Assembly (NCBI GenBank): GCA_946184595.1 | Contig: CAMHFM010000001.1 | Coordinates: 1-24,474, forward strand | Length of the DNA stretch: 24,474 nt | Source of the DNA: an uncultured Azospirillum sp. | GTDB taxonomy: Bacteria > Pseudomonadota > Alphaproteobacteria > RF32 > CAG-239 | Reading direction: 5' to 3' | Shown here: positions 1 to 10,478 of the stretch, one piece after another | Layout of the letters: the number at the start of each line of letters is the position of its first letter | Position numbering within the stretch: position 1 is the stretch's first letter | Position numbers and translations under genes: made by a program | The notes under the pieces: generated by a model | What the model was told of the DNA's origin: nothing | Database searches by the model: none | What the model saw: only the letters and a program-made list of their open reading frames with translations

Positions 1-374
1 TTAATTTTCAGCATTTTTTGCTGCCAAGGAGTTTTAAGTTCAATATCTTCTAACTTTGCATCGGAAGGATTAAGCCCTTGTTTTTCGTAGATATGGAGAT
101 AAGCTTGGTGTGCTTGTTCGGAGTAGTGTCCTTGTGCATCATATCCAGCTGCTTCAATGAGCTCTTTTAATGCATCAAAGGCATCGGTTGTCGAATTATC
201 AAAATCCACGTCATTATCAGCAATAGAAAATATTAAAGATTCTACAACGCCTTCAGCATGCTCATTTTGCATCTCAGGCTTGTTAATATATTTTCTGTTG
301 TAGCGAATAGCTCTGATGTAATCGTAAAGTATTGTACTATCAATATCAAATGGGCCGTATTTTATTTTTGTCAT
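1..374 (-). CDS. Hypothetical protein, partial (124 codons visible, runs off the left edge; not in the ORF track)
   Basis: Manual translation from ATG at 374 gives MTKIKYGPFDIDSTILYDYIRAIRYNRKYINKPEMQNEHAEGVVESLIFSIADNDVDFD...KTPWQQKMLKI with no stop. AAGGA RBS lies just upstream on the minus strand, and a candidate promoter is present. No family recognised. Confidence 0.8.
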   Translation of the reverse strand, partial: MTKIKYGPFDIDSTILYDYIRAIRYNRKYINKPEMQNEHAEGVVESLIFSIADNDVDFDNSTTDAFDALKELIEAAGYDAQGHYSEQAHQAYLHIYEKQGLNPSDAKLEDIELKTPWQQKMLKI

Positions 375-400
375 GTTTTTGTCCTTAAAAATTTTGTAAG

Positions 401-429
401 AATATGTCACACAGGAAATAAAGAGTCAA
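401..429 (-). promoter_or_regulatory. Candidate sigma70 promoter for the hypothetical gene
   Basis: Minus strand TTGACT-N17-CATATT with a TGn extended -10. The -35 overlaps a GANTC site (423-427). Confidence 0.5.
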
Positions 430-459
430 TAAAAAAGTAATGTTTTGTCTATTATATTG

Positions 460-480
460 ATATAGTCTCTGTGACTATAT
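460..480. promoter_or_regulatory. Perfect 8-bp inverted repeat, candidate transcription-factor site
   Basis: ATATAGTC-tctgt-GACTATAT between the divergent promoters. Confidence 0.45.
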
Positions 481-497
481 TTATATTTAAAAATATA

Positions 498-528
498 TTG
501 CAATTTATATTAGAGTATTCTAATATAA
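498..528 (+). promoter_or_regulatory. Candidate sigma70 promoter overlapped by a 10-bp palindromic operator
   Basis: TTGCAA (498-503)-N17-TAATAT (521-526). The inverted repeat TTATATTAGA-gtat-TCTAATATAA (505-528) covers the spacer and -10. Confidence 0.6.
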
Positions 529-531
529 TTC

Positions 532-617
532 TAATAAAAGTTGAGTAAAGGAAATAATTCAGCTTTTATTATTCAGCAGTCGGGGAGTCTGGGTAGCAAT
601 ATCCAGACTCTTTTATT
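532..617 (+). ncRNA. Candidate ~85-nt two-hairpin small RNA or attenuator, family unknown
   Basis: Starts where the 498-526 promoter would initiate. Hairpin 532-571 has a 15-bp stem including G-U pairs. Hairpin 582-613 has a GCAA tetraloop and a U-rich tail. No ORF inside. htpX has its own promoter downstream. Confidence 0.4.
582..617 (+). terminator. Intrinsic terminator-like hairpin upstream of htpX
   Basis: GAGTCTGG-GTA-GCAA-TAT-CCAGACTC followed by TTTTATT. Confidence 0.7.
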
Positions 618-644
618 GACCTTAGTTTCAAATCATCATAAAAT
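616..644 (+). promoter_or_regulatory. Candidate htpX sigma70 promoter
   Basis: TTGACC (616-621)-N17-TAAAAT (639-644); AAGGAAG RBS before the ATG at 678. Confidence 0.65.
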
Positions 645-677
645 AGCGCCACAATAGCAAACCTAAGGAAGACTGAA

Positions 678-1520
678 ATGGGAAAGACTTTTATATTAAT
701 GTTCGGACTGATTGCAATTTTTATGTGGCTCGGAGATATGCTTGCCGGTTACGAGGGAATGAAAGTTGCATTTTTAGCGGCATTAGGTATCAATTTTATC
801 GGATATTTTTTCAGCGATACATTAGTTCTCAAACAGTATCGCGCAACAGAGGTTAATGAAAGTCAGTCCCCTGAACTTTATGGAATAGTCCAACGTCTGT
901 CACAAAAAGCTGGGCTGCCGATGCCGAAAGTTTATATTATTCCGGAGCAAAGTCCGAATGCTTTTGCTACGGGGAGAAATCCAAAACACGCAGCAGTTGC
1001 GGCAACGCAAGGCTTGTTGGAACTGATGACACCGGAAGAGGTTGAAGGTGTTCTCGCTCACGAGATGAGTCACGTTAAACACTATGATATTTTAATCGGA
1101 TCGATAGCGGCCACATGGGCGGGCGCGATTTCGTTTTTAGCCAATACGGCAAGACGCGGAACGGTAAATAATCGCTCTCAAAATCAAAAGAACGGCTTAG
1201 CATTATTAATAGGCGTTGTATTGATGCCGTTAGCAGCCACGGTTATTCAAATGGCGATTTCGCGTACGCGAGAATATAAAGCGGACGAGGGTGCAGCATA
1301 TTTAACCAACCATCCTGAATGGCTAATGTCGGCGCTTTCTAAATTAGAAAATTATGCCGGACACCTTCCTCTCCGAAAAGCAAGTTCGCAAACGGCGCAT
1401 TTGTTTATTGTCAATCCGTTTGGCGGGATGAAAAGTAATTTTTCAAGTTTATTCAGTACGCATCCGAGCACAGCGGATCGAATTGCTCAGTTAGAAAAGA
1501 TTAGAACGAAATTACAATAA
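678..1520 (+). CDS. htpX: Membrane zinc metalloprotease HtpX (peptidase M48)
   Basis: HEMSH (HExxH), PNAFATGRNP, SRTREYKADEGA and FSTHP motifs, plus N-terminal and internal hydrophobic helices; 280 aa. Confidence 0.95.
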   Translation: MGKTFILMFGLIAIFMWLGDMLAGYEGMKVAFLAALGINFIGYFFSDTLVLKQYRATEVNESQSPELYGIVQRLSQKAGLPMPKVYIIPEQSPNAFATGRNPKHAAVAATQGLLELMTPEEVEGVLAHEMSHVKHYDILIGSIAATWAGAISFLANTARRGTVNNRSQNQKNGLALLIGVVLMPLAATVIQMAISRTREYKADEGAAYLTNHPEWLMSALSKLENYAGHLPLRKASSQTAHLFIVNPFGGMKSNFSSLFSTHPSTADRIAQLEKIRTKLQ

Positions 1521-1540
1521 TATATATAAACATCTAATAC

Positions 1541-1600
1541 AGTCACCCCTCCAAACCGTCAGGTTTGGTCAAGGGGGCTTCGGCTTTTAATTCTCTTTTT
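1541..1600 (+). terminator. GC-rich structured element after htpX, probable terminator
   Basis: CCCCT-CCAAACC-GTCA-GGTTTGG-TCA-AGGGG hairpin, an overlapping C(UUCG)G mini-hairpin, then T-rich tracts. Confidence 0.5.
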
Positions 1601-1901
1601 CGATTCCCAAAAAACACAATATCGATTCTTGCTTATATTCACGATTCTTTATTAAGAAAAAAAATTTATAAGCGCCTTCTAAAAAAACATCTGTGAATAA
1701 CTATATTAGAAAAACAAAGAGTAATCGGACTCGAAAAAAAGATGCTTTAAAAACATCGCAAAATAAGAAAGTGAGAAAAGATGACGATTCTCTGACTCGC
1801 AAAAAAATAAAAGAAAAATCGCAATCGCAAATAAAAGTAGCGATTCCCTCAAAATAAAAATTTTTTTGCGCGAAAAGCGAGAGTCAATAAGCCTTGACTC
1901 G
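1601..1901. promoter_or_regulatory. Cluster of nine GANTC sites with A-tracts upstream of the autotransporter
   Basis: GANTC at 1602, 1624, 1643, 1728, 1786, 1794, 1842, 1881 and 1896. Eight of nine read CGA(T/G)TC on one strand. The motif count is direct; its regulatory role is inferred. Confidence 0.7.
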
Positions 1902-1922
1902 CTGAAAAAAAGTGATTAAAAC
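1881..1922 (+). promoter_or_regulatory. Candidate autotransporter promoter with an inverted repeat over the -35
   Basis: GAGTCAA-N6-TTGACTC (1881-1900). TTGACT (1894-1899)-N17-TAAAAC (1917-1922; weak, lacks the last T). GGAGG RBS at 1956-1960. Confidence 0.5.
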
Positions 1923-1970
1923 TTTAGGCATCTATAATTTTTTAACCTATAAAATGGAGGATTTTCTGAT

Positions 1971-4900
1971 ATGCGTTATACAAGAACTGCTATCACTCAA
2001 TTAACCAAGATGTATAGAAGCGTACTGAAGAAGTGCGCTTTTTTAAATGCCTTAATTTTGACAGGTGTTGTCGCTGCATCACCGTCTTGGGCTGATTATA
2101 TCGATTATATCAATACTGAAACAACAGCGTTTCAGTTTGGTGACGTTTCAATCGCAGGCCAAGAATATATGGATAATACGGCATTCGGTGGTCGCCGTGG
2201 AGCATGGACAGATGGCAAATATCTGAACACCTTCCCGCAATATCAGCTGGAAGGTCGCTCTTTTGGATTAAGCGGTAGTAAAGCGTATGTCGGACCTGTT
2301 GAGTTGACTTTGCGTGAATTAACAGATGCCGATCATTTGATCTATAATTATCAATTGAATGGTGATGATGTCGACTTGGCAAATTTAGCACATGTTGATT
2401 TCGGTAATACTCAGAGTGAAATCGTTGCCGGTGTTGCCGGTGTTATTGGTGCAGACAATGCGCAATATACAGCTCCGGGTGTTGTTGCTTTCGCCAATCG
2501 CGATGATAGTAAAGCTGCAGGTTCAATGACCATTACTAATTCAAATATGGTTATTGATGGTGCAACCGTTAATGCAAATACAATTAACGTCAGCAGTTCA
2601 AATTTAACATTTGCCAAAAAAGGCGCTGATTTATTAACAGCAGGGTTATCTCCTGAAGTACGTTTTTATACGAATGCTGCAAGCATTGATTCAGATGGTA
2701 AGTCAGCCTTAAATGCTGATACAATGACATTTGATGGTTCTCGTGTCGTTGTTAATGCCGGTGCTGAATTGACAATCAACCCGACAACCAGTGCGACAAT
2801 TTCAAATGCAACAACAGAAGGAAATGGTGGTGCTGTTTATAACCAAGGTACAATGAATATTGGTTCTTCAACATTTGATGGTAACACCACGGCTTCAAGA
2901 GGTGGTGCTATATTCAACTATGGTACAACGTCAATCGATGGGGCTACATTTACAGGAAATAGGACAACAAGCACATCCTATCCTTCACAAGGTGGTGCGA
3001 TTTATAACGCAGGTGATGTAGAATATTTAGATAAATATGGTATATTGACTATTTCTAATTCTACTTTTGGTGATGCAAACGATAACACTAAAGGTAATAT
3101 TGCTATGCAGGGTGGTGCAATATCAAATGATAGTGGCAATGGATATAACGCAGAACTAACATTAAACAATACGAACTTCTATTATAACAAAGCACAAAGT
3201 TCAGCTGACGGAGGTTATAGTGCACTTGGTGGTGCTATTCATAGTACATTGAACGATGCTGATGTTATAGTAAATGGAGATACCACATTTAAAGGTAATT
3301 CGGCAATAGGTTATTCGGCAGAAGGTGGTGCAATCTATAATTCTTCTTGGGGTAAATTTACATTTAATGACACTGTAACTTTTGATTCAAACATAGCAGA
3401 AGATACAAACGGCGCTAATGGTGGCCAAGGTGGTGCTATATCAAATGCAGACGGCACTATGGTATTTAAGGATTTAGCAACATTTACGAATAACAAAGCT
3501 ATTGGTGATGGTCAAACATCAGGTGGTGCGCTTTATAATGCAAACGAAACAACATTTGAAAATGGTGCAACATTTACTGGTAACGAAGCTATGTATGGTG
3601 GCGCTATCTTTAACGGCGGTACTGTTAATTTAACAGATGCATCATTTACAGATAACACAGCAGGTGATGAAGGTGGCGCTATCTTTACTTATGGCGGTAC
3701 AGTAAATATTAATGCTGTAAACAGTGATGTAGCTTTCAGTAGCAACACTGCAAATGGTAATGCCAACGATATTACGAACTACAAGAGTACAATCAATCTA
3801 AATGCTGCATCGGGTAAAACAATTGCTCTTGAAGGTGGTATCGATGGTCTTGCTAGTATGGTAGCACAAAATAAAGTTAACATCACAGGTGCTGGTACGG
3901 TTGAAGCTTCTACAATCAAGAATCAAACTGTGGCTGTTAAAGGCGGTGAATTGCACTTGTCCAATGGTGAAGCCGACGGTTCTAACCTCGCCGGTTCAAC
4001 GGTTACTGTTGCTAGTGGCGCAATTGCTAATACAATTGATAAAACCATCAATAACTACTCAGACAAAATCACTCTTGCCGATGGTGCAAAAGTTAAACTC
4101 GATGCTGACTTAACTGGTACAGGAACAATTGATACTTTTGCCGGTAGTGGTAGTATAAATATTGATGGTGTTAACATCACCAGCGATGGCGCCGGTGGAT
4201 CATTGACAGTTGCCGCAGGTGCAACGATTGTTGTTGCAGAAAATACTACCGCTTATACAACAGATAAAAAATATAAAGTTACAGGTTCTGCAAGTGCAGG
4301 TGATGGTAATATTACAATTACACAACAAACCGGAGCAGGCGGTTTGGAACAGGCTGTTGATGACACAGTTCCAGGAACAACTCAAACAGTCACTTATAAT
4401 TTGACGAATAATGATACGGTTGATAGTGATGTAAAAGTAGAAAAAGCAAACTTTACAATCAATGGTGATGGTACAGGAGCATTAGACAAAGGCGTTACCC
4501 TTACCGCAGAATTAGGTGTAGATGGTAATTCTACCTTAACAATTGATAATACAAAAATTGCGGGTGATGGCGGCTCTTTGAGTAATGATGCCGGTGGTAC
4601 GGTCAATATCAATGAATCAAATATCGGTGTCAATATGAATATCAACGGTACGACAACTGTTAAGGACACAACTTTTGATCATAGTGTTATTCACGTTGGA
4701 GCAAATGGTAAATTAATCTCAGACCCGACGGTTTATAATGGTGGCGTAATTGTTCTTGATGATCCTACTGCTGTTGTTACAACGGATGGCGATACCTTCC
4801 AAAATACAGATAGAACAGGTTATAATGGTGGTGCTATTGATGCATCAGCCGGCGGAAGCGTAACACTAACAAATAACACAGTTACTAACAACAAGGCTGA

Positions 4901-7900
4901 TGCTGGTGCCGGTATCTATGCAGGTGCAAATGCAAATACGTCAATTACCGGTGGTGCATTTACATCTAACTCAGCAGTAGCTGGTAACGGTGGTGCAATC
5001 TACAACGCAGGTGCATTAACTGTTACTGATGCAAACTTTGATACAAATACGGCAACAGGCTTAGGTGGTGCTATCTACTCAACAGCCGCTGCAACAATCA
5101 ATGCAACTGGTGCTAATGTTTCATTCACAGGAAACACTGCAGGTGGTAATGCTAACGATATCTACATGCAAGGTGCTGACGGTGCTGATGTAACTTTAGC
5201 TCTTAATGCCGCAGACGGAAAATCAATCACTTTAGGTTCTGGTATTGGCGGTCAATACTATGATATCAATGTTAACGCAACAACAACCGGAAATGTTGCT
5301 CTCGGTGATGTTGCCGGTGTTGATGCAATCACGGTTGGCGGTGGTGCTGTTTCCGCAACCACAGTTGATGCAAATGCCTTAACCTTAAATGATGGTACTT
5401 TCACAACAACCGGTGTTTCAACAATCGATACGTTGAATACAGCGGCAGGTAAAACATTTACAGCTAATGCTGATCTGACTGTTCAAGGTGGTACCAACGC
5501 TGGTACAATCAATGGTACAGGTAATGTAACTCTCCTCGGTGCAGATATGACAAACGCCGGAACAATCAGTGGTACAGGTACAACTACTATCGGTAACGGT
5601 GTTGATGCTGCTAAATTAACCAACAGCGGAACAATTACAGGCAGTGATATCGTTATTTCGGCTAATGCTACATTAAATACTGCTGCTGATACAGTTACAG
5701 ATGCTGATGGTATCGCTAACGCCGGTACATTGAATCTTGCCGGTGGAGCTGGTGCAGGTACAGCTAAAGCTCTCACAAGTGCTATGACAGGTACAGGTAC
5801 TACAAATATCACAGGCTTTGTAACCAATGATAAGAGTATTGCACAAGGTACCGTTAATGTTGGAACAGATGATGGTCTTACTGTCGTTGCTGGTAATTTA
5901 GCCAACAGTGCGGCTATTGCTGCCGATGTTGTTGTTAATAACCAATCCACATTAACAAACAATGCAACAGGCGTTATCGGTTCAGCTGATCCTGCTGATA
6001 TTGCAACAGACGATTACTCATTAACAGTCGGTACACACGCAACTGCAACAAACTCTGGTACCATCAATGTTGCCGAACTCGGTACTTGGGGCAACTTCAC
6101 CAATGCTGCAGGTGCAACAATCAATGCTACGGGTATTGAAAATACATTTGACGGTACTGCTAATACAGGCGTCTTTACAAACGCAGGTACAATTAATGGT
6201 AATATTACAAACAAAGCAGGTGCTACAGGCGTTGCAGGTACTTTCACAAACGCCGCTACTGGTACTATCAATGGTCAATTTATTAACCAAACAGGTGGTA
6301 CATATACAAACAATAATAAATCATTAGGTGCAGTAGGCAACTTTGGTACTTTTAATAACGCAGGTCAACAGGGTACAAGATTAGGAACGGTAGCTGATTA
6401 TGCCGCAGGTGTTACCAACAATGCAAATGCGACATTAAATAACAATGCCAACGGTGACATCTTCTATGTTGTAAATAATGCAAACGGTACTGTTAACAAT
6501 GCAGAAGGTGCAACTATTAAGCATATAGATAACGGCGGTGCTGTTGTAAATAATGGTACTATCACAGGTGGTATTGAAAACTACGCAGGTGCTACTTTAA
6601 CATCAAATGCAAGCAATATTACTTCTGCAAGCAATTACTTCAAGAATGACGGTACTGTAACATTTACAGGTGGTACAATTCAGAGAGATATTGCTAAAGT
6701 AACAGCCGGCGGTGGTATTGTTGAAATTGCAGGCGATGTTGCTGTCTCTGCAAATAAGACAATTACAGATAACTCTGTTAAATTAACCAGTGGTAAATTT
6801 GATGTTACGGCTTTGGCTGATAGCGGTGCTATCGATCTTTCTACACTTGGTACAGGTCTTGTTGCTAACGGCGGTACATTAAGCGTTGTAGATAATGCTT
6901 ATGAAACAGTTACTTTGGGTGATGTTAATACAACAGCCGGTAATTTGAATGTTGCTATTGATGCTGCTTTAACAAGTACAGGTGATCCTGCTGTTGGTCA
7001 AGCCGATGTCATCAGTATTGCAGCTGGTAAAGCAGTAACAGGCACAAATACAATTGATATTAGCAATATTCATATCACAACCGAACCTGTAAAAACAGAG
7101 TTTACATTCCAAGTTGCTGACGATTCAGCTAAAGCAAATGTTTCTCTGTCAAAAACAACGATTACAGCCGGTACAGATATTCCAACGGCAAGTATTGGAA
7201 ACTTGTTGTTATCTTATGATAATACGACAGGTATTATTACCGGTGGTCACTCAGATTTAGCAAACGCAATAAATTCAACATTAGCAACCAAAGCATACAC
7301 AATGGGTGCTGATGAAGTTGTCGCTGCTAATAGTGTATTAGCCGGAACATCATTGTCTATCACAGGTGGCAATACAACAGCTGCTGGTGACTTGACAGTT
7401 GGTGATGGTAAAACATTAACACTCAACAACACAACATTTGCTGCTGATCTTGCTAATGCTGGCAATTTGAATCTTGGTGGTACAACCACAATCAACGGCA
7501 AAGTTTCCGGTGTTGGTGGTGCTACCGTTCTTGCAGACAGCACAGTTGCAATCAATGATACTTTCACTCAAAACAGCTTAACAATTGCTGCTCCGAGTGA
7601 TGGCGAACATGCAACGACTGTTACAGCTAATGCTTCTAATTTAATCATTGCAACTGGTATCGATAACGACGGTACTTTAAGCCTGACAGGTGGAACACTT
7701 GCTTCAGCTGTAAGTGGTGATGGTTCAACAGTTATTGATGGTACAGTCTCTTCAACTGCTGCAATCTCAAATACTGCAGGTATTACAGTAAAAGCAGCAA
7801 CCACAGCTGATCCTTCAGTAGCATCTCAATTAACAATTGGAGCATCAAATGTAGGAGCTGCAGTAGACAATGACGGTAAGTTAATCTTACAAGCAGGTGA

Positions 7901-10478
7901 ACTAGCAAAAGCTGTAAGCGGTGACGGTGCAACAGAAGTTACCGGAGCCGTTACAGTTAATAATACAACTGGTTCAATCGCTCAAGATATCGATATCACA
8001 GCCGGTAGCTTAACAGCAAATGCTGATAAACTCACAGGCGATGATATCAATATTAAGTATGATGCTGAATTAACCTTAACCGGTGGTGAGTTAGATGCAA
8101 ATATTAATGGCTATACTGTTGATCCTCTGGATCCAACAACGACCACATACGGTGCATTGCGTGTTACAGGTGATACAACATTAAACGGAACAACAACTGT
8201 TGATGCTCTCACAGTCGCTGATGATATAACCTTAGATGCTGATGACGATGTAACAGTTAATACCACATTGGCAAATACTGGTACAATTACCGGCGCTGGT
8301 GATTTAACATTACTCGGTGCAGCTATGAGCAATGCTGGTACAATTTCTGCCGCATCTGTAACAGTTGGTGATGGTACAAATGCTGCCGCATTTACCAACA
8401 ACGGTACAATTGGTTCTGCAACAACAGACACAAATGTAACGGTTAGCGATAATGCAGCATTAACAAACAATGCAAACAAGACAATTACTGGTAATGTTAC
8501 AAACGATGGTACGGTTACCAACAATGGTGATATCACAGGTAATGTAACAAACAATGCCGGTGCAACAGCTACCAACGCAGGTAAGATTGCTGGTAATGTA
8601 ACAAACAATGCCGGTGCAACGTTCACAACTGCAGGTGTTGATAATGTAGATGATCCTCAAACAGGTGTGACAGGTACAATTGCAAATGATGGTGCTTTAA
8701 CCTTAACAGATGGCACAGTTGTTGGTGCTGTAACAGGTACAGGTACAACCACAATTTCTGGCGCTGTTGAAAATGGTGCTAGCATTACAGGTAATAATAT
8801 TGCAGTTGCTGCCGGTGGTAAATTAACCACAGCTGCCGATACAATTACGGATAAAGATGGTAGCATTGCTAATGCTGGTACATTGGAATTAACTGGTGGT
8901 GATCTTAACCAAAATGTAACGGGTGGTAATTTGGATATCAATGGTGATGTTGCAATCGCAACAACAGCTGATGTTGTAAGTACCAGTGCAACCACAATTG
9001 AAGCCGGAAAGACATTAACTGCCGGAGATAAAGCTGTTACTTTAGGTGATACAACCATCAACGGTACATTAGATGTCGGCACGAATGATAACGTAACGAC
9101 AGGTAATACAACAGTTGGTGCTACTGGTTCTGTTGGTGTAAAAATCACAGATTTAGCCAATGGTTCTAGTACCTATACTGGTGGTCAATTAAATGTAAAC
9201 GGTAATCTCACAACCGACTCAGACAGTAAATTAAAACTGGATATTGCTGATGGCTTGTTAGAAGATCAACACAGTCATAGTGGTAGCTTAGATGTGGTTG
9301 ACGTAGCAGGTACTGGTGGATTCACAGGCGATCAAATTGAAGTCAGCGGAGACTACGAGGTTACAGTCAATCCGAATGGTTCAATTGTCATCGTTAACAA
9401 GAATTCTTACGCTGATGTCAGCAACGCCGCAATCGGTAGCGCTAACAACGTTGCAACCGCAACCGGTTGGGATAATGCAACCAACTTACCTGACGGTAGC
9501 TTGGCTAGAGACATTCAAAAGACTTTGAACAAGATTTCTAAGAATAATCCGGGCGCTTATGTCAATGCATTGACAAATCTCGCTCCGACAGATTCTGCAC
9601 TGTATCAAAGTGTAGCCTTAGAAGTCAGCAACTTGATCAACGAACAAGTTACAGATCGTCTGAAGTCTCAAGGTATGAACTCTGGTGATGTCTTTGAACG
9701 TCAAGGCGCTTGGGTCAAGACCTTCTATAGCCACGCTGAACAAGACAGCGATCGTAGCACTCCAGGCTTTACTGGTAAAACAAAAGGTATCGCTTTCGGT
9801 TTGGATGGACAAGTTGATGAGAATACAACAGTTGGTGTTGGTTATTCTTACAACACAACCGATGCAGACTCTCTGAACAGAGATATTGATATTACAGGCC
9901 ATAACATCTTTGCTTATGGAAAATATCAACCGTCTTCATGGTTCGTCCGTGGTATGGTCAACTATGGTTTGTCTGATTACGAAGAGAAATCACATGTTCT
10001 CGGTTTCGTAAAGACTGCTGATTATGATGTCAAGAACTATGGTTTTAGAACATATGTCGGCTATGACTTACCGAATGGTTTCACTCCGGAAGCTGGTTTA
10101 CGTTATACTCACCTGACTGTTGAGAACTATATGGATAGTTTAGGTCAAGTTGTTCGTACGGATGATATTGATATCTTGACGGCAACATTGGGTGTTAACT
10201 TCCAAAAAGACGTAGAAACCTTTGGTTACAAGTGGACACCAAAAGCTCACTTCGGCGTTACATATGATTTGGCTAACGACGGAGCTGACGCATCAGTCGT
10301 CCTCGGCAACAGTGCATATAATATCAACGGCGAAGCTTTAGATCGCTTTGGTATTGAAGCTGGTGTCGGTGCAGAAATAAATATGGGAGATTGGAGCTTA
10401 TCTGCTGAGTATGAATACGGATATCGTGATAATTTCGAAAATCATACAGGTATGTTACAATTGAAATATAATTTCTAA
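1971..10478 (+). CDS. Giant type Va autotransporter / adhesin with Pmp-like repeats (2835 aa)
   Basis: Long N-terminal signal region ending ..AASPSWA. 13 GGA(I/L/V) motifs with FxxN-type partners in two blocks. G/T/N/A/D-rich passenger with no Cys seen. C-terminal ~260 aa of alternating beta-strands (GAWVKTFYSH...QLKYNF) ending in Phe. Confidence 0.93.
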   Translation: MRYTRTAITQLTKMYRSVLKKCAFLNALILTGVVAASPSWADYIDYINTETTAFQFGDVSIAGQEYMDNTAFGGRRGAWTDGKYLNTFPQYQLEGRSFGLSGSKAYVGPVELTLRELTDADHLIYNYQLNGDDVDLANLAHVDFGNTQSEIVAGVAGVIGADNAQYTAPGVVAFANRDDSKAAGSMTITNSNMVIDGATVNANTINVSSSNLTFAKKGADLLTAGLSPEVRFYTNAASIDSDGKSALNADTMTFDGSRVVVNAGAELTINPTTSATISNATTEGNGGAVYNQGTMNIGSSTFDGNTTASRGGAIFNYGTTSIDGATFTGNRTTSTSYPSQGGAIYNAGDVEYLDKYGILTISNSTFGDANDNTKGNIAMQGGAISNDSGNGYNAELTLNNTNFYYNKAQSSADGGYSALGGAIHSTLNDADVIVNGDTTFKGNSAIGYSAEGGAIYNSSWGKFTFNDTVTFDSNIAEDTNGANGGQGGAISNADGTMVFKDLATFTNNKAIGDGQTSGGALYNANETTFENGATFTGNEAMYGGAIFNGGTVNLTDASFTDNTAGDEGGAIFTYGGTVNINAVNSDVAFSSNTANGNANDITNYKSTINLNAASGKTIALEGGIDGLASMVAQNKVNITGAGTVEASTIKNQTVAVKGGELHLSNGEADGSNLAGSTVTVASGAIANTIDKTINNYSDKITLADGAKVKLDADLTGTGTIDTFAGSGSINIDGVNITSDGAGGSLTVAAGATIVVAENTTAYTTDKKYKVTGSASAGDGNITITQQTGAGGLEQAVDDTVPGTTQTVTYNLTNNDTVDSDVKVEKANFTINGDGTGALDKGVTLTAELGVDGNSTLTIDNTKIAGDGGSLSNDAGGTVNINESNIGVNMNINGTTTVKDTTFDHSVIHVGANGKLISDPTVYNGGVIVLDDPTAVVTTDGDTFQNTDRTGYNGGAIDASAGGSVTLTNNTVTNNKADAGAGIYAGANANTSITGGAFTSNSAVAGNGGAIYNAGALTVTDANFDTNTATGLGGAIYSTAAATINATGANVSFTGNTAGGNANDIYMQGADGADVTLALNAADGKSITLGSGIGGQYYDINVNATTTGNVALGDVAGVDAITVGGGAVSATTVDANALTLNDGTFTTTGVSTIDTLNTAAGKTFTANADLTVQGGTNAGTINGTGNVTLLGADMTNAGTISGTGTTTIGNGVDAAKLTNSGTITGSDIVISANATLNTAADTVTDADGIANAGTLNLAGGAGAGTAKALTSAMTGTGTTNITGFVTNDKSIAQGTVNVGTDDGLTVVAGNLANSAAIAADVVVNNQSTLTNNATGVIGSADPADIATDDYSLTVGTHATATNSGTINVAELGTWGNFTNAAGATINATGIENTFDGTANTGVFTNAGTINGNITNKAGATGVAGTFTNAATGTINGQFINQTGGTYTNNNKSLGAVGNFGTFNNAGQQGTRLGTVADYAAGVTNNANATLNNNANGDIFYVVNNANGTVNNAEGATIKHIDNGGAVVNNGTITGGIENYAGATLTSNASNITSASNYFKNDGTVTFTGGTIQRDIAKVTAGGGIVEIAGDVAVSANKTITDNSVKLTSGKFDVTALADSGAIDLSTLGTGLVANGGTLSVVDNAYETVTLGDVNTTAGNLNVAIDAALTSTGDPAVGQADVISIAAGKAVTGTNTIDISNIHITTEPVKTEFTFQVADDSAKANVSLSKTTITAGTDIPTASIGNLLLSYDNTTGIITGGHSDLANAINSTLATKAYTMGADEVVAANSVLAGTSLSITGGNTTAAGDLTVGDGKTLTLNNTTFAADLANAGNLNLGGTTTINGKVSGVGGATVLADSTVAINDTFTQNSLTIAAPSDGEHATTVTANASNLIIATGIDNDGTLSLTGGTLASAVSGDGSTVIDGTVSSTAAISNTAGITVKAATTADPSVASQLTIGASNVGAAVDNDGKLILQAGELAKAVSGDGATEVTGAVTVNNTTGSIAQDIDITAGSLTANADKLTGDDINIKYDAELTLTGGELDANINGYTVDPLDPTTTTYGALRVTGDTTLNGTTTVDALTVADDITLDADDDVTVNTTLANTGTITGAGDLTLLGAAMSNAGTISAASVTVGDGTNAAAFTNNGTIGSATTDTNVTVSDNAALTNNANKTITGNVTNDGTVTNNGDITGNVTNNAGATATNAGKIAGNVTNNAGATFTTAGVDNVDDPQTGVTGTIANDGALTLTDGTVVGAVTGTGTTTISGAVENGASITGNNIAVAAGGKLTTAADTITDKDGSIANAGTLELTGGDLNQNVTGGNLDINGDVAIATTADVVSTSATTIEAGKTLTAGDKAVTLGDTTINGTLDVGTNDNVTTGNTTVGATGSVGVKITDLANGSSTYTGGQLNVNGNLTTDSDSKLKLDIADGLLEDQHSHSGSLDVVDVAGTGGFTGDQIEVSGDYEVTVNPNGSIVIVNKNSYADVSNAAIGSANNVATATGWDNATNLPDGSLARDIQKTLNKISKNNPGAYVNALTNLAPTDSALYQSVALEVSNLINEQVTDRLKSQGMNSGDVFERQGAWVKTFYSHAEQDSDRSTPGFTGKTKGIAFGLDGQVDENTTVGVGYSYNTTDADSLNRDIDITGHNIFAYGKYQPSSWFVRGMVNYGLSDYEEKSHVLGFVKTADYDVKNYGFRTYVGYDLPNGFTPEAGLRYTHLTVENYMDSLGQVVRTDDIDILTATLGVNFQKDVETFGYKWTPKAHFGVTYDLANDGADASVVLGNSAYNINGEALDRFGIEAGVGAEINMGDWSLSAEYEYGYRDNFENHTGMLQLKYNF
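8538..8620 (+). repeat. 29-bp perfect direct repeat, 54-bp period, inside the passenger
   Basis: GGTAATGTAACAAACAATGCCGGTGCAAC at 8538-8566 and 8592-8620 (GNVTNNAGAT twice), with a degenerate third copy upstream (GNVTNDG). Confidence 0.9.

Follow-up and report, generated by a model that had tools for sequence, protein, structure and literature searches.

Why does the 450-bp spacer between htpX and a giant autotransporter gene carry nine copies of GANTC, the target of the methyltransferase CcrM, in a genome that is otherwise poor in this sequence? An earlier note on this DNA proposed that the cluster is a methylation-based phase switch, which would turn a surface adhesin ON and OFF. The spacer is located near the start of the window, by which we mean the whole stretch of 24,474 nucleotides that was analysed. 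The genome assembly to which it belongs totals 966 kb in 171 contigs, is 81% complete, and has a GC content of 37%. The labels of close genomes describe them as rumen, reindeer, and roe-deer MAGs, that of the nearest reads 'uncultured Azospirillum sp.', and the stretch itself is present in animal-gut metagenomes, including those from sheep and bovine sources.

The gene downstream of the spacer encodes a classical (type Va) autotransporter with an extended signal peptide, Pmp repeats of the form GGAI/FxxN (PF02415, Chlam_PMP, E = 3.4e-18), and a C-terminal beta-barrel spanning residues 2580-2815 (PF03797, E = 3.2e-41). The upstream gene, htpX, encodes a Peptidase_M48 protein. The gap between the two genes would serve as the promoter and regulatory region of the autotransporter gene, and the following features can be recognized in and around it.

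1545-1590, + strand: terminator hairpin of htpX, a stem-loop visible in the sequence and a copy of a dispersed repeat, which bounds the control region on its upstream side.
1601-1648, + strand: distal block of three same-strand CGATTC boxes (1602, 1624, and 1643) with spacings of 22 and 19 bp, belonging to repeat families D4 and D7.
1723-1733, − strand: CGAGTC box (+ strand GACTCG, 1728-1733) adjoining a CGATT half-site (1723-1727).
1785-1799, no strand assigned: tight GANTC doublet consisting of CGATTC, three bases, and GACTCG.
1817-1827, − strand: two CGATT half-sites (+ strand AATCG) without the final C, and hence not CcrM targets.
1841-1846, + strand: CGATTC box whose extended context is that of the box at 1601 (D4).
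1881-1900, no strand assigned: inverted repeat with two GANTC sites, of which the left one (AGAGTCA) is alone in having no C flank.
1893-1921, + strand: candidate sigma-70 promoter P1, proposed from sequence layout, with CTTGAC (1893-1898), a 17-nt spacer, and TTAAAA (1916-1921).
1956-1973, + strand: Shine-Dalgarno sequence GGAGG and ATG start codon of the autotransporter gene.
1971-10478, + strand: gene for the 2835-aa classical autotransporter, identified from profile matches and the translation.

All nine GANTC sites listed in the earlier note are present, with start positions at 1602, 1624, 1643, 1728, 1786, 1794, 1842, 1881, and 1896 (within 1602-1900). Given the genome's own intergenic rate of 2.1 GANTC per kb, only 0.63 sites would be expected per 300 bp (Poisson P = 2.4e-8). 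When approximately 910 crude intergenic regions of the 81%-complete genome are ranked by GANTC density, the htpX-autotransporter gap comes first, and the genome-wide comparison that the note had suggested therefore identifies this region as the top outlier. Its surroundings are poor in the motif. Specifically, the whole window carries 43 sites compared to 67 expected from shuffles, and the whole genome carries 1838 compared to 3299 expected, for an observed/expected ratio of 0.56 (0.54 in coding DNA and 0.74 in intergenic DNA). The 8.5-kb autotransporter coding region, in which the note had found about ten sites by eye, contains 11. Genomic GANTC depletion with a relative intergenic excess has been described for Alphaproteobacteria that carry CcrM (PMC3973325), and the depletion and intergenic excess observed here match this published signature.

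The genome encodes a full-length CcrM orthologue as well as GcrA, the two proteins whose presence the note had proposed to confirm. The CcrM orthologue is a 370-aa ORF on contig C168 that aligns with Caulobacter CcrM (6PBD) over residues 14-362, including the C-terminal domain, with E = 6.8e-156. Its score of 602 bits against the NCBIfam CcrM model is below the strict equivalog cut-off of 830. GcrA is recognized by PF07750 (E = 1.5e-37), aligns with both the DNA-binding domain (5YIU) and the sigma-interacting domain (5YIX) of Caulobacter GcrA, and is found in 29 of 30 high-quality family genomes. The presence of both CcrM and GcrA, combined with the first rank of the region among GANTC outliers, makes control linked to methylation plausible here, and this part of the earlier interpretation stands.

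Additional proteins and sites related to methylation were noted. The promoter region of gcrA carries a CGAGTCT box approximately 60 nt upstream of the start codon (G000:C25:2436-2441, L004). Autoregulation of gcrA or its control by CcrM has been reported in other Alphaproteobacteria, and the box fits either arrangement. There is also a second CcrM-like methylase of 264 aa that is without the C-terminal domain (G000:C49, L002:1429-2223), and a ParB-methylase fusion of 455 aa (G000:C65, L003:1429-2796). The neighbour of the 264-aa methylase was considered as a possible restriction enzyme, but it encodes a D-Ala-D-Ala carboxypeptidase rather than a nuclease.

In Caulobacter crescentus, GcrA acts with sigma-70 RNA polymerase to activate promoters that carry methylated TGATTCG/YGAKTCK sites, which are positioned around −20 or in a second, broader zone (PMC4647560). 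GcrA-activated and CcrM-methylated sigma-70 promoters in this species include ctrA P1, mipZ, and ftsZ (PMC4647560, Haakonsen et al. 2015; PMC3667746, Fioravanti et al. 2013). The array resembles these promoters in its GANTC target, in the YGAKTC flank and middle base, in the co-occurrence of CcrM with a two-domain GcrA, and in having one site on a candidate core promoter. When each GANTC is taken on the strand that gives G or T as the middle base, a 5′ C flank is found on eight of the nine sites compared to 19% genome-wide (binomial P = 1.5e-5), reflecting five occurrences of CGATTC and three of GACTCG as originally reported. Eight sites match YGAKTC and three match the full 7-mer YGAKTCK, a Caulobacter consensus that may differ in this organism. 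Unlike the Caulobacter promoters, which have one or two sites near −20 or the start, this region has nine sites over 300 bp, including a tight doublet and a distal same-strand triplet. Furthermore, the Caulobacter targets are cell-cycle genes, whereas the putative target here is a giant autotransporter gene and, in the family, also ribosomal-protein operons.

The enrichment extends to a word that is not identical to the CcrM target. CGATT/AATCG is the most enriched 5-mer in the region, with 8 copies compared to 0.5 expected (P = 7e-8), and the AATCG half-matches previously noticed at 1723, 1817, and 1823 are indeed present without a GANTC, each lacking the final C that CcrM needs. Extended contexts also recur, namely CGATTCCC twice, CGATTCTT twice, GACTCG(C)+A7 three times, and TCGCAAA..TAAAAG three times. 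These features would suit an operator array that functions independently of methylation, wherein a factor recognizes CGA(T/G)T (11 copies including the three half-sites), spreads on A-rich DNA, and represses or activates transcription, with GANTC being incidental. We consider such an array unlikely, given that the C flank itself belongs to the published GcrA preference and that no candidate factor is known; two further observations on this point are given below with the conserved arrays and the strain comparison. A-tracts are found downstream of most array sites, as the note had described, and neither the A-tracts nor the GANTC sites of the array exhibit a helical periodicity of 10-11 bp.

Some of the multiplicity might have arisen by duplication. 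The spacer contains a degenerate 66-bp direct repeat (families D2 and D6, with D1 in three copies), and TTGACTC occurs as a −35-like word at several promoters of the genome. No comparable array is found at related genes: a 3721-aa homologue in genome G009, which resides in another gene neighbourhood, has about two GANTC sites upstream, the paralogue on contig C8 has one, and the C122 paralogue has its upstream region truncated where the contig stops. On these grounds, together with strain data that reveal no significant constraint, the sites could be viewed as having no dedicated function, having arisen through local duplication within A-rich spacer DNA and through the chance presence of GACTC in a −35 element (TTGACTC). 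We regard this as very improbable. GANTC is avoided genome-wide (0.56), which makes the chance rise and persistence of nine sites very unlikely, and comparable arrays elsewhere are conserved. Moreover, duplication alone fails to explain the consistent C flank because the boxes are located on both strands and their contexts differ.

The two sites closest to the gene form a perfect inverted repeat, GAGTCAA-N6-TTGACTC at 1881-1900. Its right arm overlaps the −35-like sequence CTTGAC, in agreement with the earlier description, such that the GACTC at 1896 overlaps the −35 element of candidate promoter P1. The layout of this candidate is the same as that of the genome's family-conserved rpsJ promoter (CTTGCA, 17 nt, TTAAAA). 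The consensus for Caulobacter sigma-73 promoters is TTGACGS...GCTANAWC, which we presume P1 to resemble. A stricter scan for TTGACA/TATAAT promoters of the E. coli type called no promoter on the + strand. One RNA-library contig starts at 1761, which is a weak hint given that contigs do not define transcript starts.

Several other candidates in the spacer were considered and set aside. The TATAAT at 1933-1938 (+ strand) is probably not a −10 element, as it has no suitably spaced −35 and strains X1, X2, and X4 carry changed or shortened versions of it. A second promoter at approximately 1727-1752 was rejected because its −35 is poor, and the contig start at 1761 cannot mark a transcript start. 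A 54-aa lysine-rich ORF at 1693-1857 was judged to be non-coding because 1-nt indels break its frame in other strains. At the RNA level, no Rfam family was found in window positions 1-3700 at E values up to 0.1, and the predicted fold of the autotransporter 5′ UTR is not better than those of shuffled sequences (z = 0.38).

An informative comparison is provided by other GANTC-dense regions of the genome. The earlier note had asked whether such outliers also precede autotransporters; they precede none, and instead are found at the following locations.

rpsJ (S10 operon) upstream region: 7 GANTC sites.
rpoB upstream region: tight doublet after a TTGACG hexamer.
rpsL upstream region: one site within the promoter spacer.
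rpsB upstream region: GANTC-dense.
Omp25/opacity-type porin (OMP beta-barrel) gene upstream region: 6 GANTC sites.
apaG upstream region: GANTC-dense.
tRNA / lysine-rich protein locus: GANTC-dense.
Non-coding stretch on contig C36: 8 GANTC sites.

Tight doublets, defined as two GANTC sites separated by no more than 3 nt, occur 16 times in the genome and are intergenic in seven cases. All seven intergenic doublets, including the one at 1786/1794, are located in GANTC-dense upstream regions. Thus, the autotransporter region carries apparent cis elements (GANTC clusters with a tight doublet) that are also found at rpsJ, rpsL, rpsB, rpoB, and the porin gene. From the identity of these genes, and not from their expression, we infer that GANTC arrays mark strong promoters.

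The array at rpsJ is maintained across genera. The 400 bp upstream of rpsJ contain an average of 4.5 GANTC sites in 30 family genomes representing approximately 23 genera. With the promoter (TTGCTTGCA, 17 nt, TGTTAcAA) used as the alignment anchor, a box of the form TTGACTC-N5-GAGTC, often followed by -N1-GAGTC, is observed at a fixed position approximately 55 bp upstream of the −35 element. The box (G000:C9:10057-10085, L006/L036; relatives L037-L065) is kept in most of the 29 aligned family genomes, which represent approximately 20 genera, and several family genomes also have a GACTC within the rpsJ promoter spacer. Elsewhere in the genome, the three-site box GACTC-N5-GANTC-N1-GAGTC occurs only once, in the C36 array, whose individual sites are themselves preserved in five genomes of the genus (alignment A1). 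A literature search found no paper describing the three-site rpsJ box. In both the rpsJ and C36 arrays, the full GANTC is conserved and the flanks vary, which argues against recognition of CGA(T/G)T independently of methylation. In our view, the family-wide presence of GANTC arrays at ribosomal-protein promoters is a more informative result than the autotransporter array itself.

Autotransporter genes of the family were surveyed in the same manner, using the start regions of 38 other such genes from approximately 20 family genomes. These exhibit a mean of 1.16 GANTC sites per 400 bp, which corresponds to background and rules out a general link between autotransporters and GANTC arrays. In 37 of the 38 cases there are 0-3 sites upstream, and five of these background genes have the same MRYTR...YRSVLKKC type of signal peptide as the giant gene. 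The single exception is the gene for a 1392-aa autotransporter in another genus, which is preceded by five CGATTC[T/G] boxes within 165 bp (L177; G024:C10:37514-38814, minus strand).

These results bear directly on the proposed phase switch, in which a DNA-binding protein would compete with CcrM so that heritable methylated and unmethylated patterns turn the adhesin ON or OFF. The idea has precedents among Dam-dependent phase switches such as pap (Lrp) and agn43 (OxyR) in E. coli and opvAB in Salmonella. As in those systems, methylation sites are clustered in the control region of a surface-protein gene, with agn43 likewise being an autotransporter gene, and pap and opvAB also have many methylation sites far upstream of the promoter. 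The methylase and motif are different here, however, and arrays are also present at housekeeping operons. The restriction of CcrM to part of the cell cycle in the species studied is another departure from the Dam logic.

A closer parallel comes from MucR, which protects GANTC sites from CcrM in Caulobacter, Sinorhizobium, and Brucella (Ardissone et al. 2016, PMC5172544), including a shielded site beside the Brucella autotransporter gene BAB2_1107 (bioRxiv 10.1101/2024.03.01.583015). The earlier note was aware of no described GANTC case, but these reports of local hypomethylation at MucR/CcrM loci show that protein shielding of GANTC is established. The MucR/CcrM loci resemble the present region in that their promoters are AT-rich, contain several GANTC sites (four in P169), and control surface or virulence genes. 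They differ in that MucR (PF05443) was not found in this 81%-complete genome or in 25 family genomes (22 of high quality), with Caulobacter serving as a positive control, and shielding here would need another protein. MucR is the only type of competitor for which these 26 genomes were searched.

In favour of a switch, then, are the location of the genome's densest GANTC cluster ahead of a surface adhesin gene, the operator-like inverted repeat over the −35 element, the many sites far upstream of the promoter, the published shielding of GANTC, and the similar array at L177. However, ON/OFF control is implausible for rpsJ, rpsL, rpsB, and rpoB. Because the same apparent cis elements are found at these housekeeping operons, a phase switch is less likely than a promoter region that is read through its methylation. 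Background site counts at 37 of 38 autotransporter genes and at the G009 homologue, the failure to find MucR, the loss of the left arm of the inverted repeat in G006, X2, and X4, and the cell-cycle restriction of CcrM further weaken the proposal. We consider the ON/OFF interpretation of the earlier note to be unsupported, and a phase switch at this locus to be distinctly unlikely.

Comparisons between strains offer a limited view of the individual sites. Among the genomes and metagenomes examined, the region is carried only by this genome, G006, and near-identical strains, and therefore provides no measure of selection on the sites. The metagenomic strains are represented by contigs assembled from short reads. 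Scans of JGI metagenomes, both by protein and by exact promoter DNA, yielded no further orthologous upstream regions. At identities of approximately 95-97%, eight of the nine GANTC sites are retained. The site that is lost, at 1881, is the sole one without a C flank, and its loss destroys the left arm of the inverted repeat in G006, X2, and X4. The distal block (1601-1648) is identical in G006, X1, X2, and X4, and no variation is seen at positions 1887-1937, either in G006 or in the strains of three metagenomes. The doublet becomes CGATTCG / TGATTCG in X2 and X4 through 1791 T>G and 1796 C>T, and both of these words fall within YGAKTCK.

The half-sites behave differently from the full boxes. 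The change 1727 G>T removes the half-site at 1723-1727 in G006, X2, and X4 but leaves the adjoining GANTC intact, and 1826 C>T removes the one at 1823 in X1. In other words, losses affect two of the three half-sites but none of the eight CGAKTC boxes among the near-identical strains, a difference that argues against the methylation-independent operator but involves numbers too small for significance. Likewise, the direction of the strain changes fits selection on GcrA-type boxes, again with numbers too small for significance. Retention of eight of nine sites at approximately 95% identity is the expectation under neutral drift; two variant positions fall within the 36 specified site positions compared to approximately 1.5 expected, and the strain data show no significant constraint.

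The strains also differ in the hairpin repeat at the end of htpX. This repeat (window positions 1541-1577) is additionally found on contigs C33, C4, and C3 and in relatives, and its copy number is strain-dependent, with approximately 227 nt of extra hairpin-repeat copies at this spot in G006, X2, and X4.

Of the explanations considered, the one that we favour, with moderate confidence, is that the nine sites form an array of CcrM/GcrA-type boxes feeding the candidate sigma-70 promoter at 1893-1921, and that its role is strong expression coupled to replication rather than stochastic switching. The adenines of the array sites would be methylated by CcrM. GcrA, travelling with sigma-70 RNA polymerase, would read the methylated sites at and upstream of CTTGAC-N17-TTAAAA and would raise transcription. 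Temporary hemimethylation after passage of the replication fork might then tie expression to replication or growth, and the presumed output would be deterministic, strong expression of a major surface protein. The sites and their sequence context, the CcrM and GcrA proteins, and the family-wide parallels are the observations on which this model is built.

Several features fit this model poorly. The published GcrA model leaves unexplained seven of the nine sites, those located approximately 90-330 bp ahead of the candidate promoter. The half-sites, which lie beyond the reach of CcrM, hint that CGATT rather than GANTC could be the recognized word. The old 66-bp duplication may be the source of part of the site multiplicity, and the array is lineage-specific.

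To our knowledge, epigenetic control by CcrM and GcrA has been known almost exclusively from free-living or plant- or animal-associated model Alphaproteobacteria, with one or two sites per promoter. Here, dense multi-site arrays are found in an uncultured, anaerobic, small-genome lineage of the ruminant gut. The loci that carry them include a giant adhesin gene and a conserved non-coding locus in addition to the genes most expressed in a growing cell, namely ribosomal-protein operons, rpoB, and a porin gene. If GcrA reads these arrays, growth-rate and surface-protein expression would have methylation state as one of their main inputs, and the conserved three-site rpsJ box would be a ready test object. 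If the autotransporter array were bistable, it would represent the first case of phase variation based on CcrM (GANTC). A true epigenetic switch that operates without MucR, in which CcrM together with GcrA or another methylation reader sets heritable alternative patterns that turn the Pmp-type adhesin ON or OFF, seems to us a doubtful prospect. Less radically, GANTC arrays bearing doublets may constitute a family-wide class of enhancers that couple the genes for ribosomal proteins, RNA polymerase, and major surface proteins to the replication/methylation cycle.

Some additional non-coding elements were encountered at related loci. The GANTC-dense stretch on C36 (G000:C36:2368-2879, L005:2368-2879) is a 510-bp non-coding region between convergent ORFs with eight GANTC sites, and carries a conserved hairpin (CTTGCTCCGACAC..CAAG) plus a terminator. 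It matches no Rfam family at gathering thresholds. The stretch may encode a minus-strand non-coding RNA of approximately 350 nt, driven from the array.

The autotransporter paralogues of 830-1000 aa have a conserved leader of approximately 230 nt with a terminator-like hairpin at its end (..ctctccgaccacct..aggtggtttt), as observed at G000:C8:1700-2072 (L149) and at L015, L018, and L019. No Rfam match was obtained for this leader at E values up to 0.1; it looks like a riboswitch or attenuator. Finally, a non-coding tandem duplication of approximately 100 nt (..tgtacactgcgttcaaagactttcttcgtattaatctaattctcc..) is located upstream of a small ORF on the same contig (G000:C8:790-1000, L149).
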